This document shows positions 29,239 to 38,170 of a DNA stretch of 64,000 nucleotides, piece after piece (positions within the stretch are counted from its first letter, which is position 1; every line of letters starts with the position of its first letter). The stretch lies in NCBI GenBank assembly GCA_000091205.1, contig AP006500.2; one strand, written 5' to 3'. The stretch comes from Cyanidioschyzon merolae (Eukaryota). A model generated the notes under the pieces. That model did not search any database, had not been told where the DNA came from, and saw only the letters and a program-made list of their open reading frames with translations. The position numbers were made by a program, and so were the translations under genes.

Positions 29239-31302
29239 TCAGATGCTTTTCTGGAGTCGCGGCTTGTTATAGAGCAGGAACACAAAGGCAATTGCACGAT
29301 ACGCTACATCAAGCATGATTAGAAAACCGATGTTTCCGCCGATACCAAATGAATTGATGTTGTACGTGACCAGTGGATTATTGGTATTCGAACGCGGAAT
29401 GTACCCGAATTCATTGTCCATGACAGCCGCGAATCCATAGTAGATAAACGACACAAAGCGAAGCCATCGCAACCACACGGGAATCACATCAGGGCCGATA
29501 AAGAAGCCGCCGAAAAGCAGCGACAGCACGATCAGTACCGGAGCGATTGCCGCTGCTGTTTGCGGGCTACTCGCTGAGGCGCTAGCCATAAGGGTCAGTG
29601 ATTCCGCGGTATGGGCCGTCAACAGCACAAGCACCACGAAGATGAAAAAAGAGGACGGATGCGGTTGCAAGCCTACCATCCAGTACGTGATGCAAGCGAA
29701 GAGAATAGCGAGCACCACCAATCGGGGAAGCTCGGCGACGCTCTTGGCGAGGAAGTAAGCACTTACGCGATAGAAACGCGATAAGCGCTCTCGCAAGACA
29801 ATACCCCGCTCAAGCGGGAACAAGAAAACAACGCCGAAAGACGCACCGAAAGCCTGATTGATAAGCAGGAAGAAAAGAACGCCGGGTACAGCGTTCAAGT
29901 CAGAGGAATTGCGTCCAGTGTTCAACCAGATCAAACCCAAAACGACTGAAAAGATGATCGTCTGAAAGAAGCGCGCAAAGTTCGTGCCCTTTTCGCGCAC
30001 CATGAGTTTGAAGGAGCGCTTCACCAGGAGCCCAAACTGTACCGGCCACGGTTCAGCGTAGTTCGGTTCGCCTTGGGACGAGAAGAGCGACACGCCCTTA
30101 CGCGTTACTTTGGTATGCAGGTCACCGATGGCGCCCAACGGATCATCCAGCGGCAGCGAGGCCTCCGACTTGTGTTCGAGAAAGCGATTGGCTAGGTAAC
30201 TGATTCGTGCCCGTGTCTGCTTCTCCAGTGTCTTGGAGCGCGCATTCAGAGAGATCAAATCCAGTGCAAAATCCGCTGGGTTAAAGTAGGCCGGACATGG
30301 ATACTTGAGCGCCGCGAAATACGGCACCATATCTTTCGCCGGACCAAAGTAGATTTGATGACCCTCGCTTAGCAGCAACAGGTAATCAAACATCTGGAAA
30401 ATCTGCGAACGTGGTTGATGAATGGTTGCAATGATCGTACGCCCGCGTCTCGCTAGCCGCAACATCGTGAGCATCACCGCCTGTGCCTGGAACGAGTCCA
30501 GGCCGGTGGTCGGCTCATCCAGGAGCAGTAGTGGCGGGTTCGTCACCAATTCTATACCGATGTTCACGCGCTTGCGTTCACCGCCACTGACACCTCGCTG
30601 TACAGCGTTCCCGATTAAAGTATTGGTGGCGTTTGCAAGGCCCAGCTCCGTGATCACCTGCTCCACGCGCCGCATCTTCTTCTCGATGGGCATCGAGGCG
30701 GGCAAACGACACTGCGCACTAAACTCGATCTGTTCACGTACGGTGAGGTCAGCAAACACGCGAGCGTCCTGCTCGACAAATCCCGTGTACCGGCGGAACA
30801 TGTTGACGTCGCGTTCGTGCCCGTTGATACGTAGCTCACCGCTAATTTCGTACTCACCAACAGGAATTCGACCTCCAAGCATCGACAAGAGGGCAGTCTT
30901 ACCCGCGCCACTACCCCCCATAATGGCGAGCACTTGACCCGGCCGCGCGTAACCAGTTATGCCTTTGAGAATGGGCTTTACCACAGTCTCCTTCGAGCGT
31001 TTAAACGGGCCACCTGTTTTGAGTCGTACCGACAAGCACAAGTCGTGCCAGTTCATCGAGAAGGTATGCTGCTGAATAAGCGAAACCTCGACGCTTTTTG
31101 ATTCCATTCTTTGTCCTTCAAAGAAGGAGCCTTGGCCTGCATCCGTGCTAAACTCGGCGAACTCATCGTCTACATGGGACTTGAGCGGGTCAAAGGGTAC
31201 GTAGCTATCTCTGTTGCCGGTAGCGTTTATCTCCTCATTCCGGTGCGCGGCAGTTGCGCCTGCTTCCTCGTCTCCAGTACCGTTTTCGTACACATCACCC
31301 AT
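29239..31302 (-). CDS. ABC transporter, G-subfamily half-transporter (NBD-TMD, white/ABCG type)
   Basis: Walker A GGSGAGKTALLSMLGGR, ABC signature VSGGERKRVNIGIELV, Walker B LLLLDEPTTGLDS, and a C-terminal 6-TM domain. ATG verified at 31302. Single exon. Confidence 0.9.
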   Translation of the reverse strand: MGDVYENGTGDEEAGATAAHRNEEINATGNRDSYVPFDPLKSHVDDEFAEFSTDAGQGSFFEGQRMESKSVEVSLIQQHTFSMNWHDLCLSVRLKTGGPFKRSKETVVKPILKGITGYARPGQVLAIMGGSGAGKTALLSMLGGRIPVGEYEISGELRINGHERDVNMFRRYTGFVEQDARVFADLTVREQIEFSAQCRLPASMPIEKKMRRVEQVITELGLANATNTLIGNAVQRGVSGGERKRVNIGIELVTNPPLLLLDEPTTGLDSFQAQAVMLTMLRLARRGRTIIATIHQPRSQIFQMFDYLLLLSEGHQIYFGPAKDMVPYFAALKYPCPAYFNPADFALDLISLNARSKTLEKQTRARISYLANRFLEHKSEASLPLDDPLGAIGDLHTKVTRKGVSLFSSQGEPNYAEPWPVQFGLLVKRSFKLMVREKGTNFARFFQTIIFSVVLGLIWLNTGRNSSDLNAVPGVLFFLLINQAFGASFGVVFLFPLERGIVLRERLSRFYRVSAYFLAKSVAELPRLVVLAILFACITYWMVGLQPHPSSFFIFVVLVLLTAHTAESLTLMASASASSPQTAAAIAPVLIVLSLLFGGFFIGPDVIPVWLRWLRFVSFIYYGFAAVMDNEFGYIPRSNTNNPLVTYNINSFGIGGNIGFLIMLDVAYRAIAFVFLLYNKPRLQKSI

Positions 31303-31671: not shown

Positions 31672-33338
31672 TACGAACATGGACGTCCGGAATCCTGAAG
31701 GGCTGTCATCGTCGGGTACCGGAAAACACGAAAGAATATCCACTTGGCTCGGACCAACATGCGAAGAAGAGCGAGTAACGAAGAAGTAGGAGAGGGGATA
31801 TGGACGAGAAAAAGTGTTTGCTCGACGGGACGATGATGAGCCTGTAGTGGCACAGGGGGCGCGAATTTCAGGAACCCCTGCACTGATGAGTTCAAGCAGA
31901 GGCAATAAACACATGGAGGTCGGGAACCGAAACTTCAGCGCCGCCATTAATATCAGACGACATGCGGTGCCGAAGACGAGACTCGCAGAGCAGTCTCTCA
32001 GGCTCGAGATGTGCAAGGATGAACTGAAACCGATTGCAATCGGCTGGTCACAAAGGGCTACGATGCGTCTGCGCGCAAGTGTATGTATACCCTCTATGGT
32101 CGTAGAACGCTGATCGTTTCACTGGTATGTACCCGCCCACAATGGAAACGAGAATTGAAGGCACACCTCAAGGCTATTGTAACTACTCCATTGCGAACAA
32201 GGTCATCATATTCGTGTTTGCAATAGTCTCGTTTGTTCGCGTCTACATCGGCAGCATGAAAGAGATCGTCAGAAAGCGCATGCCGTGCATCGACGCTGTC
32301 TTCACTCAGATAACCGCCGTATGGGCGCTTGTCGGAGAAATCCTCTTAACCGTCGCAGTGGCAGCGGGCACTTCTCGCAACAGAAACCGCTGCCGGCTTT
32401 TCCCTGGATTGAATTCGGGTTGCTTTTGTTCGCATGGATGATAACGCTCGGGCGTGTCTGAAGATGCCAGGAGCGGGACACTCGTGAAGAACGATCCCAT
32501 TCCGATACAGCTGGGGCCCCGAAACCACTTCCGAGTCCCTGACGCGTTTCCTTCCGAAGGGGAGCACAGCGAATGGCCGGCAGACCTTGAACGTCCAGTG
32601 CGGAATAGCGGACGCTCTCCCGGATGCTGGCAACAATCGCGCCAGTGAGAGTCGTTGGTTTGTGTAAACGATCCTACACCTTAAAAGAACTGAAGCGTTC
32701 CTCAGCGTTCCAGGTTATGTGGATTCTGGCCAGGCCTCCTCTTTTCATGGAGCAGGTGTCCTGGAAAGAGCGTCCTCCCTCAGAGATGACGCCAGGAGCA
32801 CAGACGCACTGTAGACGAGACCAGCTTCCCAAGTAGTCCTATTTGTGTCTGGTCCCCTGATGCGAAACGCGATACCCATGTCTGGGTTTGATGACATTGT
32901 CCCAGAGCTCCACGGCCGCTCAGCAATTACATATCTCACTGGATGTGTGTCAACGTAGATGCATCGCTCCGGTGGTGACAGGTCTGCAGGAGGCGCACGC
33001 GCGCGCACAGCGGCCGATCTCGCGCACTGACCGAAATAGCCCACCGAATGGGGGAGAGCGCCCGCGCGCTCGCCGCCGCAGCGCGCGCACGGCTGCGTGC
33101 GTGTCCCCGATCAGCCGGCCAGTCGTCCAGAGGATCGCACCAGCGTCCGATTTGGAAGCGGCCGCACACCAAAATTGGCCTCGGATCGATTTAGGCAGTA
33201 GGTCATTCGCGGCCTGTGTCTCTCCGATCATGAAATGAACTAGTTCGGTGTTTTGGCATTTAGCGGGTGTGCTCTGTGCGGCTTTGATTGCGACAGGAAG
33301 CAATTTTGCTTTGGAACCGTAACCGTGAACCGAAAAGA

Positions 33339-34031
33339 ATGCAGCGGTACGTTACAACAATACTCAGCGTTCTTTTGCTGTGTGGGCTGCTTTTCTCTGC
33401 TCCAGGAGCGATCAGAGCGGAGATCGAGTTGAGTCTGGTGGAGCTACCGCTCGATCTTCACCATTCAATGCCGAACTACCCTTCAGGAAACTTTCCGGCG
33501 CCGTCGCCGCTGCTACCGCACCCACCAGTGTATGACGAGAATCGCACCGCAACACTCATGCTGACTGGAGCGCAGGTGCAGAACAGCAACAACGCCGGCC
33601 AGAACGACTTCGGGGTCGGGGGTGAAATTACGTTCAGCTCGGGAATCAAGTATGCAACTGTGTTCCCAAATGAAGCGCCTGGAACGTTCAAGGTTGTGAA
33701 TGCTACAGAACTACTTTCCAACATTTCCTTCGCATACTTTGTGTACTACAAGCATCCACTGGCACAATACGCATCGCTGAATTTCCCAGCAAGCAACCCG
33801 GTAGCGAGCCTCTACCAGCCTAATCAGCGTAGTCCGAACTATACTGCCGGGGCAGTGGTGATCAAACAGTCGAACGTGATGCCGTCTTCGCACGGGTCGA
33901 TCTACGTGAGCTTCAATGTCTATGACCCACAGAACACATCCCGCGTCCCGAACATCCCGAGCAGTCTACTGGACATGGGTGTTCTGAGCATCTTGGATGT
34001 ACCTTGCTCGGGGGCTGGTATCGAGTGCTGA
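33339..34031 (+). CDS. Secreted, N-glycosylation-site-rich protein of unknown function, paralogue 1
   Basis: ATG verified at 33339. It carries a hydrophobic signal peptide (MQRYVTTILSVLLLCGLLFSAPGAIRA), multiple N-x-S/T sites and a C-terminal ..VPCSGAGIEC. It is colinear and about 45% identical with the downstream gene. Confidence 0.6.
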   Translation: MQRYVTTILSVLLLCGLLFSAPGAIRAEIELSLVELPLDLHHSMPNYPSGNFPAPSPLLPHPPVYDENRTATLMLTGAQVQNSNNAGQNDFGVGGEITFSSGIKYATVFPNEAPGTFKVVNATELLSNISFAYFVYYKHPLAQYASLNFPASNPVASLYQPNQRSPNYTAGAVVIKQSNVMPSSHGSIYVSFNVYDPQNTSRVPNIPSSLLDMGVLSILDVPCSGAGIEC

Positions 34032-34956
34032 CATAGGGATCGGGTTACATTCTTTTCATTGGCTTCATCGCAGGGTGTGCGTGGATCCACCGACAACCAC
34101 TCGCATGTGGTCGTCGTCCAGCACCAAGACGCGAACACGATGCGCATTCGGTTCCGAGACATCGTCAGCAGTGTGTTGGATCGGTTCTGTGAAAATTTTG
34201 GCAAGTAAAATGATACTGGCGTTTGGGGTTTCCAGAATTGATTTTACGGCGCACGACAAGTAAACAGACGAGCGTGTCGATCCATGTCGATGTGATTCGT
34301 CGCCACGCACGCAGAGAATCTCGTTGTTCCTTTCAGATTCAGATGAGCACATCGGTAGTGACTTGTTTGGATTCCACGGACCAGATGCCTAGAAAATGGC
34401 ACACGAGCGTTGGTCAAACGTCCAAAAGAGCTAGAGAAGGAAGGATTTTCAGCATATCCGCGGTGTCTCCTGTTCCACAATTCTGGTATTCTGGTCTTGA
34501 TGCACGCTGGTCGGGGTTTCAGCGATTGCCCTCGTGCAACATTTGCATCCACAAGATCTGCGCGAAGCATGGATTCTCCTATAACGTCGTGAAGTTTCCG
34601 CACCGAGTACCAGAATGTGCCTCAGAGTGCCTGTGCTGGTATTCGGCACCTCGTGTAGCGCGCATACCAGGAAGCACCGCCAGATCAGACGCTGTCTCTG
34701 TAATCCAAATCGGGTTTCTTTCGGGTGCGCCACGCGCGCGGCAGCTGCGTGCAGCGCGCACGCGGACACGTGCACACTCGACACCCAATTTGGACACTAC
34801 AGAGGACCAGGCTCGGGACCGTGCCAGACCGGGATATCCACTCTGTGTGTAGCACTGGACCGCTGCCAATGCGAAAGCTCGTGTGCAATTGCATTTGTCT
34901 TGATATCCCGCTCAGCCAGGGTGAGTTACAAAGATAGTGTTCATTGCGCTTGTACA

Positions 34957-35667
34957 ATGTCTCGCCGACACGCATTGGGTAGCGTTGTATTGCTGGTGTT
35001 GCTCCTCGTGGGAATTCGATGCTGCATATCCGCAGCTGTTTGGCCGCGTTCAGAGATCGACACGGCACTCCTGGAAGAGGTGCTCGGGAGCGTTCGCGTG
35101 ACCGAGTCTCATGATCATGAAAGCATGGAAGGTGTGCCGTCGCCACTCCCGTCGACACCACCGGTTTACGATATGAATCGCACCGCGACTGTGGTCATCA
35201 CAGGTACGCAGGTTGTAAACAGCAACGGTGCCGGGGAGGGCCCCTATGCCTACGGGCTGGGCATCAGCTTCTTGTCAGGAATCCGCTATGCCACGGTGTA
35301 TCCGAACAACGATCCCGGGAGCTTCCGACTCATTAATGCAACAGCTTTGCTGAAAAACAACTCCTTCTTGTATTTCATCTACTACAAGTCTCCGATCGCC
35401 CAGTACTCTGCAGAGAACTCTGCCGGAAGAGCTACCGTTGCGGATTTGTACACTGAAAACCAAACGAATCCGGATTTCGTGTCCGCAGCGGTGATGATCA
35501 AGAGGCTGCGCACCACCACGGGCAATCATGGTGAGTTCTCGGCCACATTCAGCGTGTTCGATCCCCATAATACGTCCGCATTGCCGAACATACCGAATAG
35601 TTTGCTCGATTTCGGCGTTTTAGGAATACAGAATGTGCCATGCGAGAATGCCGGCATCAGCTGCTGA
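34957..35667 (+). CDS. Secreted, N-glycosylation-site-rich protein of unknown function, paralogue 2 (tandem duplicate)
   Basis: ATG verified at 34957. The signal peptide is MSRRHALGSVVLLVLLLVGIRCCISAAVWP. It shares with the upstream paralogue the blocks PPVYD.NRTAT...TG.QV.NSN.AG......G..I.F.SGI.YATV.PN..PG.F...NAT.LL.N.SF.YF.YYK.P.AQY.....NIPSSLLD.GVL.I..VPC..AGI.C. Confidence 0.6.
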   Translation: MSRRHALGSVVLLVLLLVGIRCCISAAVWPRSEIDTALLEEVLGSVRVTESHDHESMEGVPSPLPSTPPVYDMNRTATVVITGTQVVNSNGAGEGPYAYGLGISFLSGIRYATVYPNNDPGSFRLINATALLKNNSFLYFIYYKSPIAQYSAENSAGRATVADLYTENQTNPDFVSAAVMIKRLRTTTGNHGEFSATFSVFDPHNTSALPNIPNSLLDFGVLGIQNVPCENAGISC

Positions 35668-37456: not shown

Positions 37457-38170
37457 ATGGCCCTGTCGTGCTTTTGTGCCAAACGTACTTTCCAGAGCTT
37501 CGATCGAACGCCCCTTCCCGAGTATGAAGAGAACAAGAGGAAAGTGAACGCGATTGAGAGCTCACTGGGGCGTCTCATTCGCGACCTCGAAGCGGTTCAA
37601 TCAAACTGGGTTCGGTTGGGTGACGTCTTGAAAGCGTTCGCATCCGATCTCAGCGGCGCTCTACCTGAATCAAGCAGTGAGAACGTCAAGGATACGTCAG
37701 AGAAGCTGGCAAAGTCCAGCGAGGAGGTCGGGAACGAGTTGCGCCAAACGCTGACGGCGGAAAAAGCGTCCCCCTCGAGTAAGATTCTCAGTTACCTGAA
37801 AGAGTTCCGTAAGCGGCTTGCAGAGTGCAAGCAAAAGTCATCCAAGATGGAGAACCTGGCGAAAGACTACGACGCAAGACGGGCTGTGGTCGATGACAAG
37901 GAAAAGGCGAACACTCCCGAGCCTAAGCTGCAACGCGTTCGTGATCTCATGTATGAGGCGGAGATGAAGTTCCGTGAGGCCGAGAAGAACGTGCTTCAAC
38001 TGCAGAAATCCATCATAGATGACGCACCGTTTGCGTTCGAGGCAGCGATGGTCGGTCTCGCAACCATTCTGGCCGATCGGTCGCGTCTCTTGCAGGAGAA
38101 AGGTACGACATTTCGCACAATTCGCGACGCGCAGCTGGATGCAGTTCTGAAGCGCATCGATTCAACGTGA
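37457..38170 (+). CDS. Hypothetical coiled-coil protein
   Basis: A 237-aa ORF; ATG verified at 37457. It is K/E-rich with a heptad-like composition and no recognisable catalytic motif. Confidence 0.35.
   Translation: MALSCFCAKRTFQSFDRTPLPEYEENKRKVNAIESSLGRLIRDLEAVQSNWVRLGDVLKAFASDLSGALPESSSENVKDTSEKLAKSSEEVGNELRQTLTAEKASPSSKILSYLKEFRKRLAECKQKSSKMENLAKDYDARRAVVDDKEKANTPEPKLQRVRDLMYEAEMKFREAEKNVLQLQKSIIDDAPFAFEAAMVGLATILADRSRLLQEKGTTFRTIRDAQLDAVLKRIDST

Follow-up and report, generated by a model that had tools for sequence, protein, structure and literature searches.

Tandem genes CMR293C and CMR295C of Cyanidioschyzon merolae encode members of a Cyanidiaceae-specific family of predicted secretory glycoproteins

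We analyzed a stretch of 64,000 nucleotides from Cyanidioschyzon merolae (contig AP006500.2 of assembly GCA_000091205.1; the whole of it is called the window) and examined two adjacent genes, referred to as A and B. The initial annotation, made from the sequence alone, had proposed a tandem pair of same-strand paralogues, and both open reading frames (ORFs) were found on the plus strand where it had placed them. They correspond to CMR293C and CMR295C of strain 10D, chromosome 18, each of which carries the database product name "hypothetical protein". These exact matches also dispose of a trypanosomatid origin, an idea prompted by the strand-switch layout. The window has about 55% G+C, and its ORFs are long and intron-free. 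BLASTP aligned A with B over 213 amino acids (aa) with 49% identity and 64% positives (E 1e-68), and full-length alignment with MAFFT gave 45-46% identity, in agreement with the earlier estimate of about 45%. All seven motif blocks listed at that time (PPVYDxNRTAT, TGxQVxNSN, SGIxYATVxPN, NATxLL, YFxYYKxPxAQY, NIPxSLLDxGVL, and VPCxxAGIxC) are present in both proteins. The search for further members by TBLASTN that had been recommended revealed homologues of A and B in other genera and none besides A and B in the window, where a six-frame hidden Markov model scan likewise detected no third or pseudogene copy.

Comparison of C. merolae with the genome GCA_041825655.1 (locus L003) yielded proportions of non-synonymous (pN) and synonymous (pS) differences of 0.147 and 0.734 for A, with a ratio of the corresponding rates (dN/dS) of ~0.06, and of 0.164 and 0.819 for B; the synonymous sites were saturated for both genes. 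To this we added a within-population set of 12 environmental haplotypes, 99.2-99.8% identical to 10D, which were compared with the window (13 haplotypes in all). The diversity of the coding sequences was 5-20 times below that of the flanks (14-27 variable sites per kb), and no insertions or deletions were present in the 12 environmental haplotypes. As judged from these substitution patterns, A and B are clearly functional and under strong purifying selection, both between species and among environmental haplotypes. The proposal that both genes are real and selected is thus borne out, and the alternative named with it, a recent pseudogene duplication with disrupted frames, is rejected in view of the intact frames and the orthologues in other genera.

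The deposited CMR295C is longer than gene B as we define it. A 350-aa ORF opening at ATG 34615 is identical to the deposited protein and encloses the 236-aa frame that opens at ATG 34957. For the N-terminal extension of 114 codons no homologue was found, and between species the intergenic DNA could not be aligned. In the L003 orthologue of B, an in-frame stop codon lies six codons before the Met. Two environmental contigs from different assemblers (L008 and L009) are 99-100% identical to the window from position 34928 on, 29 nt before ATG 34957, and carry other sequence upstream of this breakpoint (L008 1-647; L009 1-71). This other sequence contains an ankyrin-repeat gene whose end lies 59 nt from the ATG of B. 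The extension showed variation like that of the flanks: all nine of its variable sites among the haplotypes fell at the first or second codon position of the annotated frame, with none at the third, and amino-acid variants were ~2.6 times denser in it than in the 236-aa part. In addition, the 350-aa model would bury the hydrophobic leader at residues 115-141, and an N-terminal signal peptide like that of the other members arises from the short model only. For these reasons ATG 34957 is favored. The extension is most probably non-coding (5' leader or promoter), with the deposited start 114 codons too early, and the evidence favors the shorter model of the initial annotation over the deposited one. 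The alternative junction might have been caused by an intron upstream of B, but this was rejected, since there is no AG acceptor at the breakpoint. The corrected start exposes a signal peptide, so that an automated secretome classification of CMR295C would change.

A signal peptide had been assigned to each protein, and this assignment was supported by an N-terminal hydrophobic segment followed by a fit to the -3/-1 rule. The highest mean Kyte-Doolittle hydropathy over 15 residues was 2.6 in A and 2.99 in B (residues 10-24), and small residues occupy positions -3 and -1 of the predicted cleavage sites (IRA-E in A, SAA-V in B). Throughout the family (15 members) the -3/-1 pattern occupies one and the same alignment column (orthologues of A read ALGA-G and ASAA-D, those of B LSAA-V and LSAA-L), although the leader sequences themselves are not conserved. 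These features are consistent with a cleavable signal peptide of the Sec/SPI type. Outside the leader, no window of 15 residues exceeded a mean Kyte-Doolittle value of 1.6, which indicates that there is no further transmembrane segment. A K/HDEL signal for retention in the endoplasmic reticulum (ER) is absent from the C-termini, which read ...GIEC in A and ...GISC in B. A glycosylphosphatidylinositol (GPI) anchor had also been suggested. This suggestion was contradicted: A, B, and most members end at the second Cys of VPCxxAGIxC, four members run 1-4 residues further, and a hydrophobic tail of the GPI type is absent across the family, so that an anchor of this kind is excluded on sequence grounds. 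C-terminal prenylation was rejected as well, because the proteins are secretory and their Cys residues do not form a CaaX, CC, or CXC arrangement.

The leader of A is followed by a variable spacer (residues 28-54) and then by a proline-rich motif with the family consensus PSPxxPxPPxY. In the numbering of A, P55, S56, P57, P62, P63, and Y65 are invariant across 11 sequences, and P55, P62, P63, and Y65 across all 15 members. The description of the proteins as rich in N-glycosylation sites stood in part. A and B contain five N-x-S/T sequons each, whereas composition-preserving shuffles contain 2.6-2.7 on average (P about 0.1), so that the count itself does not exceed chance; however, three sequon positions are kept in 15 of the 15 members, down to 36% identity (Table 1). 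This retention at low identity argues that glycans at the three sites may matter. A secreted protein from this lineage is documented to carry N-linked high-mannose glycans (PMC6508830). At the C-terminus, the V, P, C, A, G, I, and C of VPCxxAGIxC are invariant in all members and lie at most four residues from the end, and the two Cys are predicted to form a disulfide loop. The invariant columns are nearly all Pro, Gly, Ala, Tyr, Phe, Leu, Val, Ile, Cys, and sequon Asn, and no invariant residue set of a catalytic type was present among the conserved columns of the 15 members.

The amino-acid composition of the family is unusual among the proteins encoded at this locus. Charged residues (D+E+K+R) account for 9.7% of the A domain, 11.4% of the B domain, and 7-16% in the family; in the 12 other window proteins used for comparison they make up 19-34%. 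S+T+N+Q account for 22-32% in the family and 17-21% in the same 12 proteins. Low charge is associated with stability at low pH in acid-stable proteins generally, and the depletion of charges is what would be expected of a protein exposed to very low pH.

AlphaFold2 (AF2) modeling of residues 49-230 of A with 15 sequences gave a predicted local distance difference test score (pLDDT) of 86.8 and a predicted template modeling score of 0.85, and three of the five models of this run, the second after a full-length one, reached a pLDDT of at least 85. In the full-length model, residues 20-50 scored below 50. The predicted structure is a compact domain of ~165 residues, mostly β-strand, with long antiparallel strands (three of them of 14 residues) and two short helices. 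The comparison covered solved structures and BFVD. The best structural neighbors were generic closed β-barrels (EF-Tu domain 2-like, Hcp / tail-tube, the hepatitis E virus P domain, and S. aureus 4qxz), which share with the model the long antiparallel strands and one or two short helices, and the search of BFVD gave no match. The modeled fold is thus without a close solved relative. Sequence searches agree with the earlier statement that no domain is recognizable: Pfam, with its FAS1, pherophorin, extensin, lectin, and CBM families, gave no match for A or B at E <= 1 and only one spurious HEAT_2 match for the 15 members at E <= 10, and the family profile had no match among PDB sequences.

Table 1. 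Positions of the genes, protein features, and flanking regions in the window. Variable sites are those among 13 haplotypes (the window and 12 environmental haplotypes).
Feature	Coordinates	Strand	Variable sites per kb	Remarks
Gene A, CMR293C (BAM82509.1 / XP_005538545.1)	33339..34031	+	1.4	230 aa + stop; exact database match; 1 variable site in 693 nt, codon position 3
Gene B, CMR295C (BAM82510.1 / XP_005538546.1), short form	34957..35667	+	5.6	236 aa + stop; 4 variable sites in 711 nt
N-terminal extension of deposited CMR295C	34615..34956	+	26.3	114 codons, Cys/Arg-rich
Upstream of A			14.2	
A-B spacer	34032-34614		6.9	
Downstream of B			26.9	
Predicted signal peptide of A	33339..33419	+		residues 1-27, MQRYVTTILSVLLLCGLLFSAPGAIRA then EIEL; hydrophobic core residues 5-20
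Predicted signal peptide of B	34957..35037	+		residues 1-27, MSRRHALGSVVLLVLLLVGIRCCISAA then VWP; hydrophobic core residues 10-24
Proline-rich motif PSPLLPHPPVY of A	33501..33533	+		residues 55-65
Sequon N68-R-T of A	33540..33548	+		sequon there or two residues upstream (N66/68) in 15/15 members (11 + 4)
Sequon N121-A-T of A	33699..33707	+		kept in 15/15 members
Sequon N199-T-S of A	33933..33941	+		kept in 15/15 members
Sequon N74-R-T of B	35176..35184	+		family-conserved position
Sequon N127-A-T of B	35335..35343	+		position kept in 15/15 members
Sequon N205-T-S of B	35569..35577	+		position kept in 15/15 members
C223-x6-C230 (CSGAGIEC) of A	34005..34028	+		inside VPCxxAGIxC
C229-x6-C236 (CENAGISC) of B	35641..35664	+		inside VPCxxAGIxC
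ABCG-type transporter	29239-31302	-		directly upstream of A

Word-indexed searches of 5.8 billion proteins revealed only ~15 distinct family members. They come from Cyanidioschyzon, Cyanidiococcus yangmingshanensis, Cyanidium caldarium, and hot-spring metagenomes carrying such algae, and no member was found in Galdieria. When 1.84 billion representatives were searched exhaustively with the family profile, this returned members from the Cyanidiaceae and one bacterial repeat protein, with no other lineage, which substantiates the earlier view of a lineage-specific family. A neighbor-joining tree resolved three clades: an A clade, which includes an additional duplicate, A2, in Cyanidiococcus-like genomes; a B clade; and a deep C clade; the tree also contains one divergent Cyanidium member. 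Orthologues of A are 77-79% identical and occur in Cyanidiococcus-like genomes, and those of B are 76-77% identical and 236-237 aa long. The tree places the A/B split at least before the divergence of Cyanidioschyzon and Cyanidiococcus; the duplication is not a recent one. The C-clade genes (e.g., KAF6000662.1 and KAK4537881.1) lie 17-19 genes away, as judged by locus-tag number, in annotated Cyanidiococcus and Cyanidium genomes. The family comprises 3-4 genes per genome at an internal, syntenic locus. In a published orthogroup, OG0001022, CMR293C is grouped with two Cyanidiococcus genes and two Cyanidium genes, and no Galdieria gene is included (PMC13353863).

The C-clade members (L005 1272-1991; P0016, P0041-P0044) are 234-243 aa long and 36-42% identical to A. 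In the annotated Cyanidiococcus and Cyanidium genomes their genes are located elsewhere on the same chromosome, and in a C. merolae-like metagenome contig a C-clade gene adjoins a CP12 gene. No 10D accession was present among the metagenome-cluster members listed, and the 10D copy of this clade may therefore be unannotated. In a EukProt gene model of Cyanidium caldarium (P0017, 1251 aa), residues 963-1098 correspond to the initial two-thirds of a family member, and the model leaves the family frame after ...YFVYYGHPLAQ; this fused or wrong-frame model was taken as an artefact of annotation or assembly.

CMR293C and CMR295C were already known as hypothetical proteins, and A was already in a published orthogroup. 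CMR292C-CMR295C were not named in the text of any paper found in our literature search, and the supplement of a nickel-stress transcriptome had no entry for A or B. A search for transcript-like assemblies of A and B returned only genomic or metagenomic contigs, which had no poly(A) ends; two of them had Illumina adapter sequence at their ends. New here are the three-clade family confined to the Cyanidiaceae, the structural model, the conserved sequons and Cys pair, the acid-type composition, the constraint at the population level, and the start of CMR295C.

From these features it is probable that A and B are soluble glycoproteins of the secretory pathway. The leader would act as a cleavable Sec-type signal peptide through which the protein enters the ER, N-glycosylation would take place at the three sequon sites that the whole family retains, and the last strand would be pinned by the Cys-x6-Cys disulfide. 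Given that transmembrane segments, a GPI signal, and an ER-retention signal are lacking, export would occur by default. Outside the cell, at pH 0.5-3, the proteins may then serve as non-enzymatic structural or binding glycoproteins, either in the largely proteinaceous wall of the diploid or in the surface coat of the wall-less haploid. The paralogues A, B, and C appear to be retained side by side in every genome, which might reflect distinct jobs or joint assembly. As a whole, the interpretation that combines a secretory glycoprotein with an acid-exposed extracellular structural or binding role is tentative, and we put its probability slightly below even.

Its biological setting is provided by the life cycle. 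Strain 10D is a wall-less haploid, and the diploid phase has a wall that is largely proteinaceous (PMC13353863), with protein making up 50-55% of the diploid Cyanidiaceae wall (PMC13353863); cellulose is lacking, and the wall is reported to be mostly protein. Between the ploidy phases, 35-50% of the genes for secretory proteins are differentially expressed (PMC13353863). Wall-associated LOX and TFF-like genes occur in three genera, Cyanidioschyzon, Cyanidiococcus, and Cyanidium, but Galdieria lacks them (PMC13353863), which is the distribution of the A/B family. The walled diploid, the phase-specific secretory genes, and the matching distribution of the LOX and TFF-like genes make a role in the wall or at the surface plausible.

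Several points weigh against this interpretation. The signal peptides were judged by hydrophobicity and the -3/-1 rule only, and the number of sequons is not significant by itself, since shuffled sequences reach it with P about 0.1. The disulfide loop of the Cys pair and any oligomerization of the family proteins are inferred. The structural modeling was not uniformly good: AF2 performed poorly on the full-length protein in the first run (pLDDT 58.8), and of the five models of the second run one failed (46.3). Low charge is equally compatible with an acidic vacuole.

The last point leads to the possibility that A and B are soluble lumenal glycoproteins of an acidic vacuole or lysosome-like compartment, with the C-terminal motif perhaps serving as a sorting determinant. 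C-terminal vacuolar sorting determinants are established in plants, and the strictly conserved extreme C-terminus VPCxxAGIxC could be such a signal; the signal peptide, the sequons, and the low charge would fit a vacuolar protein equally well. However, neither Pfam nor PDB sequences nor structure comparison revealed a known vacuolar protein or hydrolase that resembles A or B, the two Cys, seven residues apart, look structural and not propeptide-like, and a charge as low as 7-10% would suit pH 1-2 better than a mildly acidic lumen. That both genes are kept under selection in the wall-less strain 10D might also seem to favor the vacuole; since 10D has a walled diploid phase, this retention is no argument against a role in the wall. 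We consider a vacuolar location rather unlikely. The wall-less haploid raises another possibility, namely that the proteins mediate cell-cell recognition or adhesion at the haploid surface in isogamous mating and are not wall components. Wall-less haploids have now been shown to mate sexually, and the secretory genes include many with a haploid bias (PMC13353863); the secretory features are present, and diversification of the paralogues could give specificity. Nevertheless, neither protein carries any kind of membrane anchor; the candidate mating-type region, CMK076C-CMK078C, is distant from the two genes and on another chromosome; and within populations A and B are highly conserved, whereas gamete-recognition proteins typically evolve fast. 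We consider this possibility quite unlikely. Linkage of A and B to the mating-type region was itself rejected, because that region is on chromosome K.

The proteins could also be secreted enzymes or inhibitors built on a new fold, for example with an activity that modifies glycans, proteins, or minerals; we regard this as very unlikely. Another origin was considered in view of the single bacterial protein in the profile search. This protein (P0018, 1180 aa; E 2.3e-6) matches profile positions 164-229 with six IPNLDASKITTGVLNIARIP repeats and has a Peptidase_S74 tail-fibre chaperone domain, so that the source of the domain might be a tail-fibre-like protein of a bacterium or phage, and its C-terminal strand motif might derive from the repeat; ~1% of Cyanidiales genes are horizontally transferred (PMC6629376). 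Against such an acquisition, the shared motif spans only ~20 residues, low-complexity repeats together make up the score, and for the remainder of the domain neither sequence nor structure comparison gave a bacterial or viral relative. The repeat resembles the family stretch N-T-S-x-x-P-N-I-P-x-S-L-L-D-x-G-V-L-x-I-x-x-V-P. The likeness is probably a motif-level convergence, and the acquisition is highly improbable. The probability that A and B are chance ORFs or decaying pseudogenes is close to nil, as this is refuted by the conservation data: three or more genera have intact orthologues, synonymous sites are saturated while non-synonymous differences are far fewer, and the low coding diversity is accompanied by no insertions or deletions.

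A stronger form of the extracellular structural role can be considered, in which the family has a previously unseen fold and is a principal building block of the proteinaceous, apparently proton-tight diploid wall or of the acid-facing coat of the haploid, with A, B, and C co-assembling. Cross-links might then form via the Pro-rich/Tyr motif or through the co-distributed lysyl oxidase. We regard this form as unlikely. The family can be compared with known extracellular proteins. The diploid-phase wall proteins of this lineage (FAS1-domain proteins, and the secreted LOX-like CMN144C / Cyanidium LOXL) are small, like A and B, and have a signal peptide, as predicted for A and B, and FAS1 and LOX proteins are candidate components or modifiers of the largely proteinaceous wall. 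For LOXL, N-glycosylation has been demonstrated (PMC6508830). The A/B family has no FAS1 or LOX domain in Pfam, and the resemblance is one of context only. Extensins and pherophorins, which are hydroxyproline-rich glycoproteins in the walls of plants and green algae, likewise combine a secretory leader with a Pro-rich segment followed by Tyr (PSPxxPxPPxY in the A/B family), joined to a globular domain. These proteins have an extracellular structural role, and the same role for A and B is a proposal. In contrast to extensins, the A/B family has one short Pro-rich motif and no arrays of Ser-Pro(3-5) repeats, and there is no Pfam match to pherophorin or extensin. The TFF-like family is lineage-restricted in the same way as A/B, and some members of the TFF-like and Hog families are differentially expressed between the ploidy phases. 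However, TFF-like and Hog genes number 15-17 each in Cz. merolae, are mostly subtelomeric, and have recognizable domains, whereas the A/B family is small and internal and has no recognizable domain.

The Cyanidiaceae live at pH 0.5-3 and 40-56 °C, and the make-up of their cell surface is poorly understood. Through the 2026 finding that 10D is the wall-less haploid phase, wall proteins have now become a genetically tractable question. A charge-depleted, lineage-restricted family is a reasonable candidate for a wall component and a potential acid-stable scaffold. If the proteins are building blocks of the wall or coat, they would represent a new kind of acid-resistant extracellular matrix protein; if they are not wall proteins, they would be an ordinary orphan family.

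The genes around A and B are housekeeping genes, which encode the glycine decarboxylase P protein, ArsA/GET3, MoaA, and a 2Fe-2S protein; downstream of B are genes for DnaJ, HOP/STI1, a DBF zinc-finger protein, a histidine phosphatase, a WD40 protein, and a P4-ATPase. At locus L003 of GCA_041825655.1 the MoaA, 2Fe-2S, DnaJ, and HOP genes surround the family in identical order. The ABCG gene is absent from this syntenic site, which contains three tandem family members as against two in C. merolae. The extra copy, A2, is located at L003 7873-8568, and the site without the ABCG gene has two small unannotated ORFs besides.

The spacer of ~2 kb between the ABCG gene and A contains a 104-aa ORF at 32127-32441 (+) with hydrophobic segments. 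It was called as a 99-aa gene in 10 of 10 environmental contigs and has a weak precomputed match to the MARVEL domain, and may be a gene for a small membrane protein. Downstream of B, a 237-aa ORF at 37457-38170 (+) has no Pfam match, 34% charged residues, and a coiled-coil-like composition.

Sequence differences were also found upstream of the two genes. The environmental contig L007 switches from the 10D sequence to unrelated sequence (L007 1-3282) at window position 33269, just upstream of A, and has a gene for the ribonucleotide-reductase large subunit ~500 bp before the ATG of A. Upstream of B, protein P0028 implies another variant sequence. The upstream switches in L007, L008, and L009 are either real structural haplotypes with breakpoints in both promoters or assembly chimeras. 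The 10D arrangement is kept in ten other environmental contigs.

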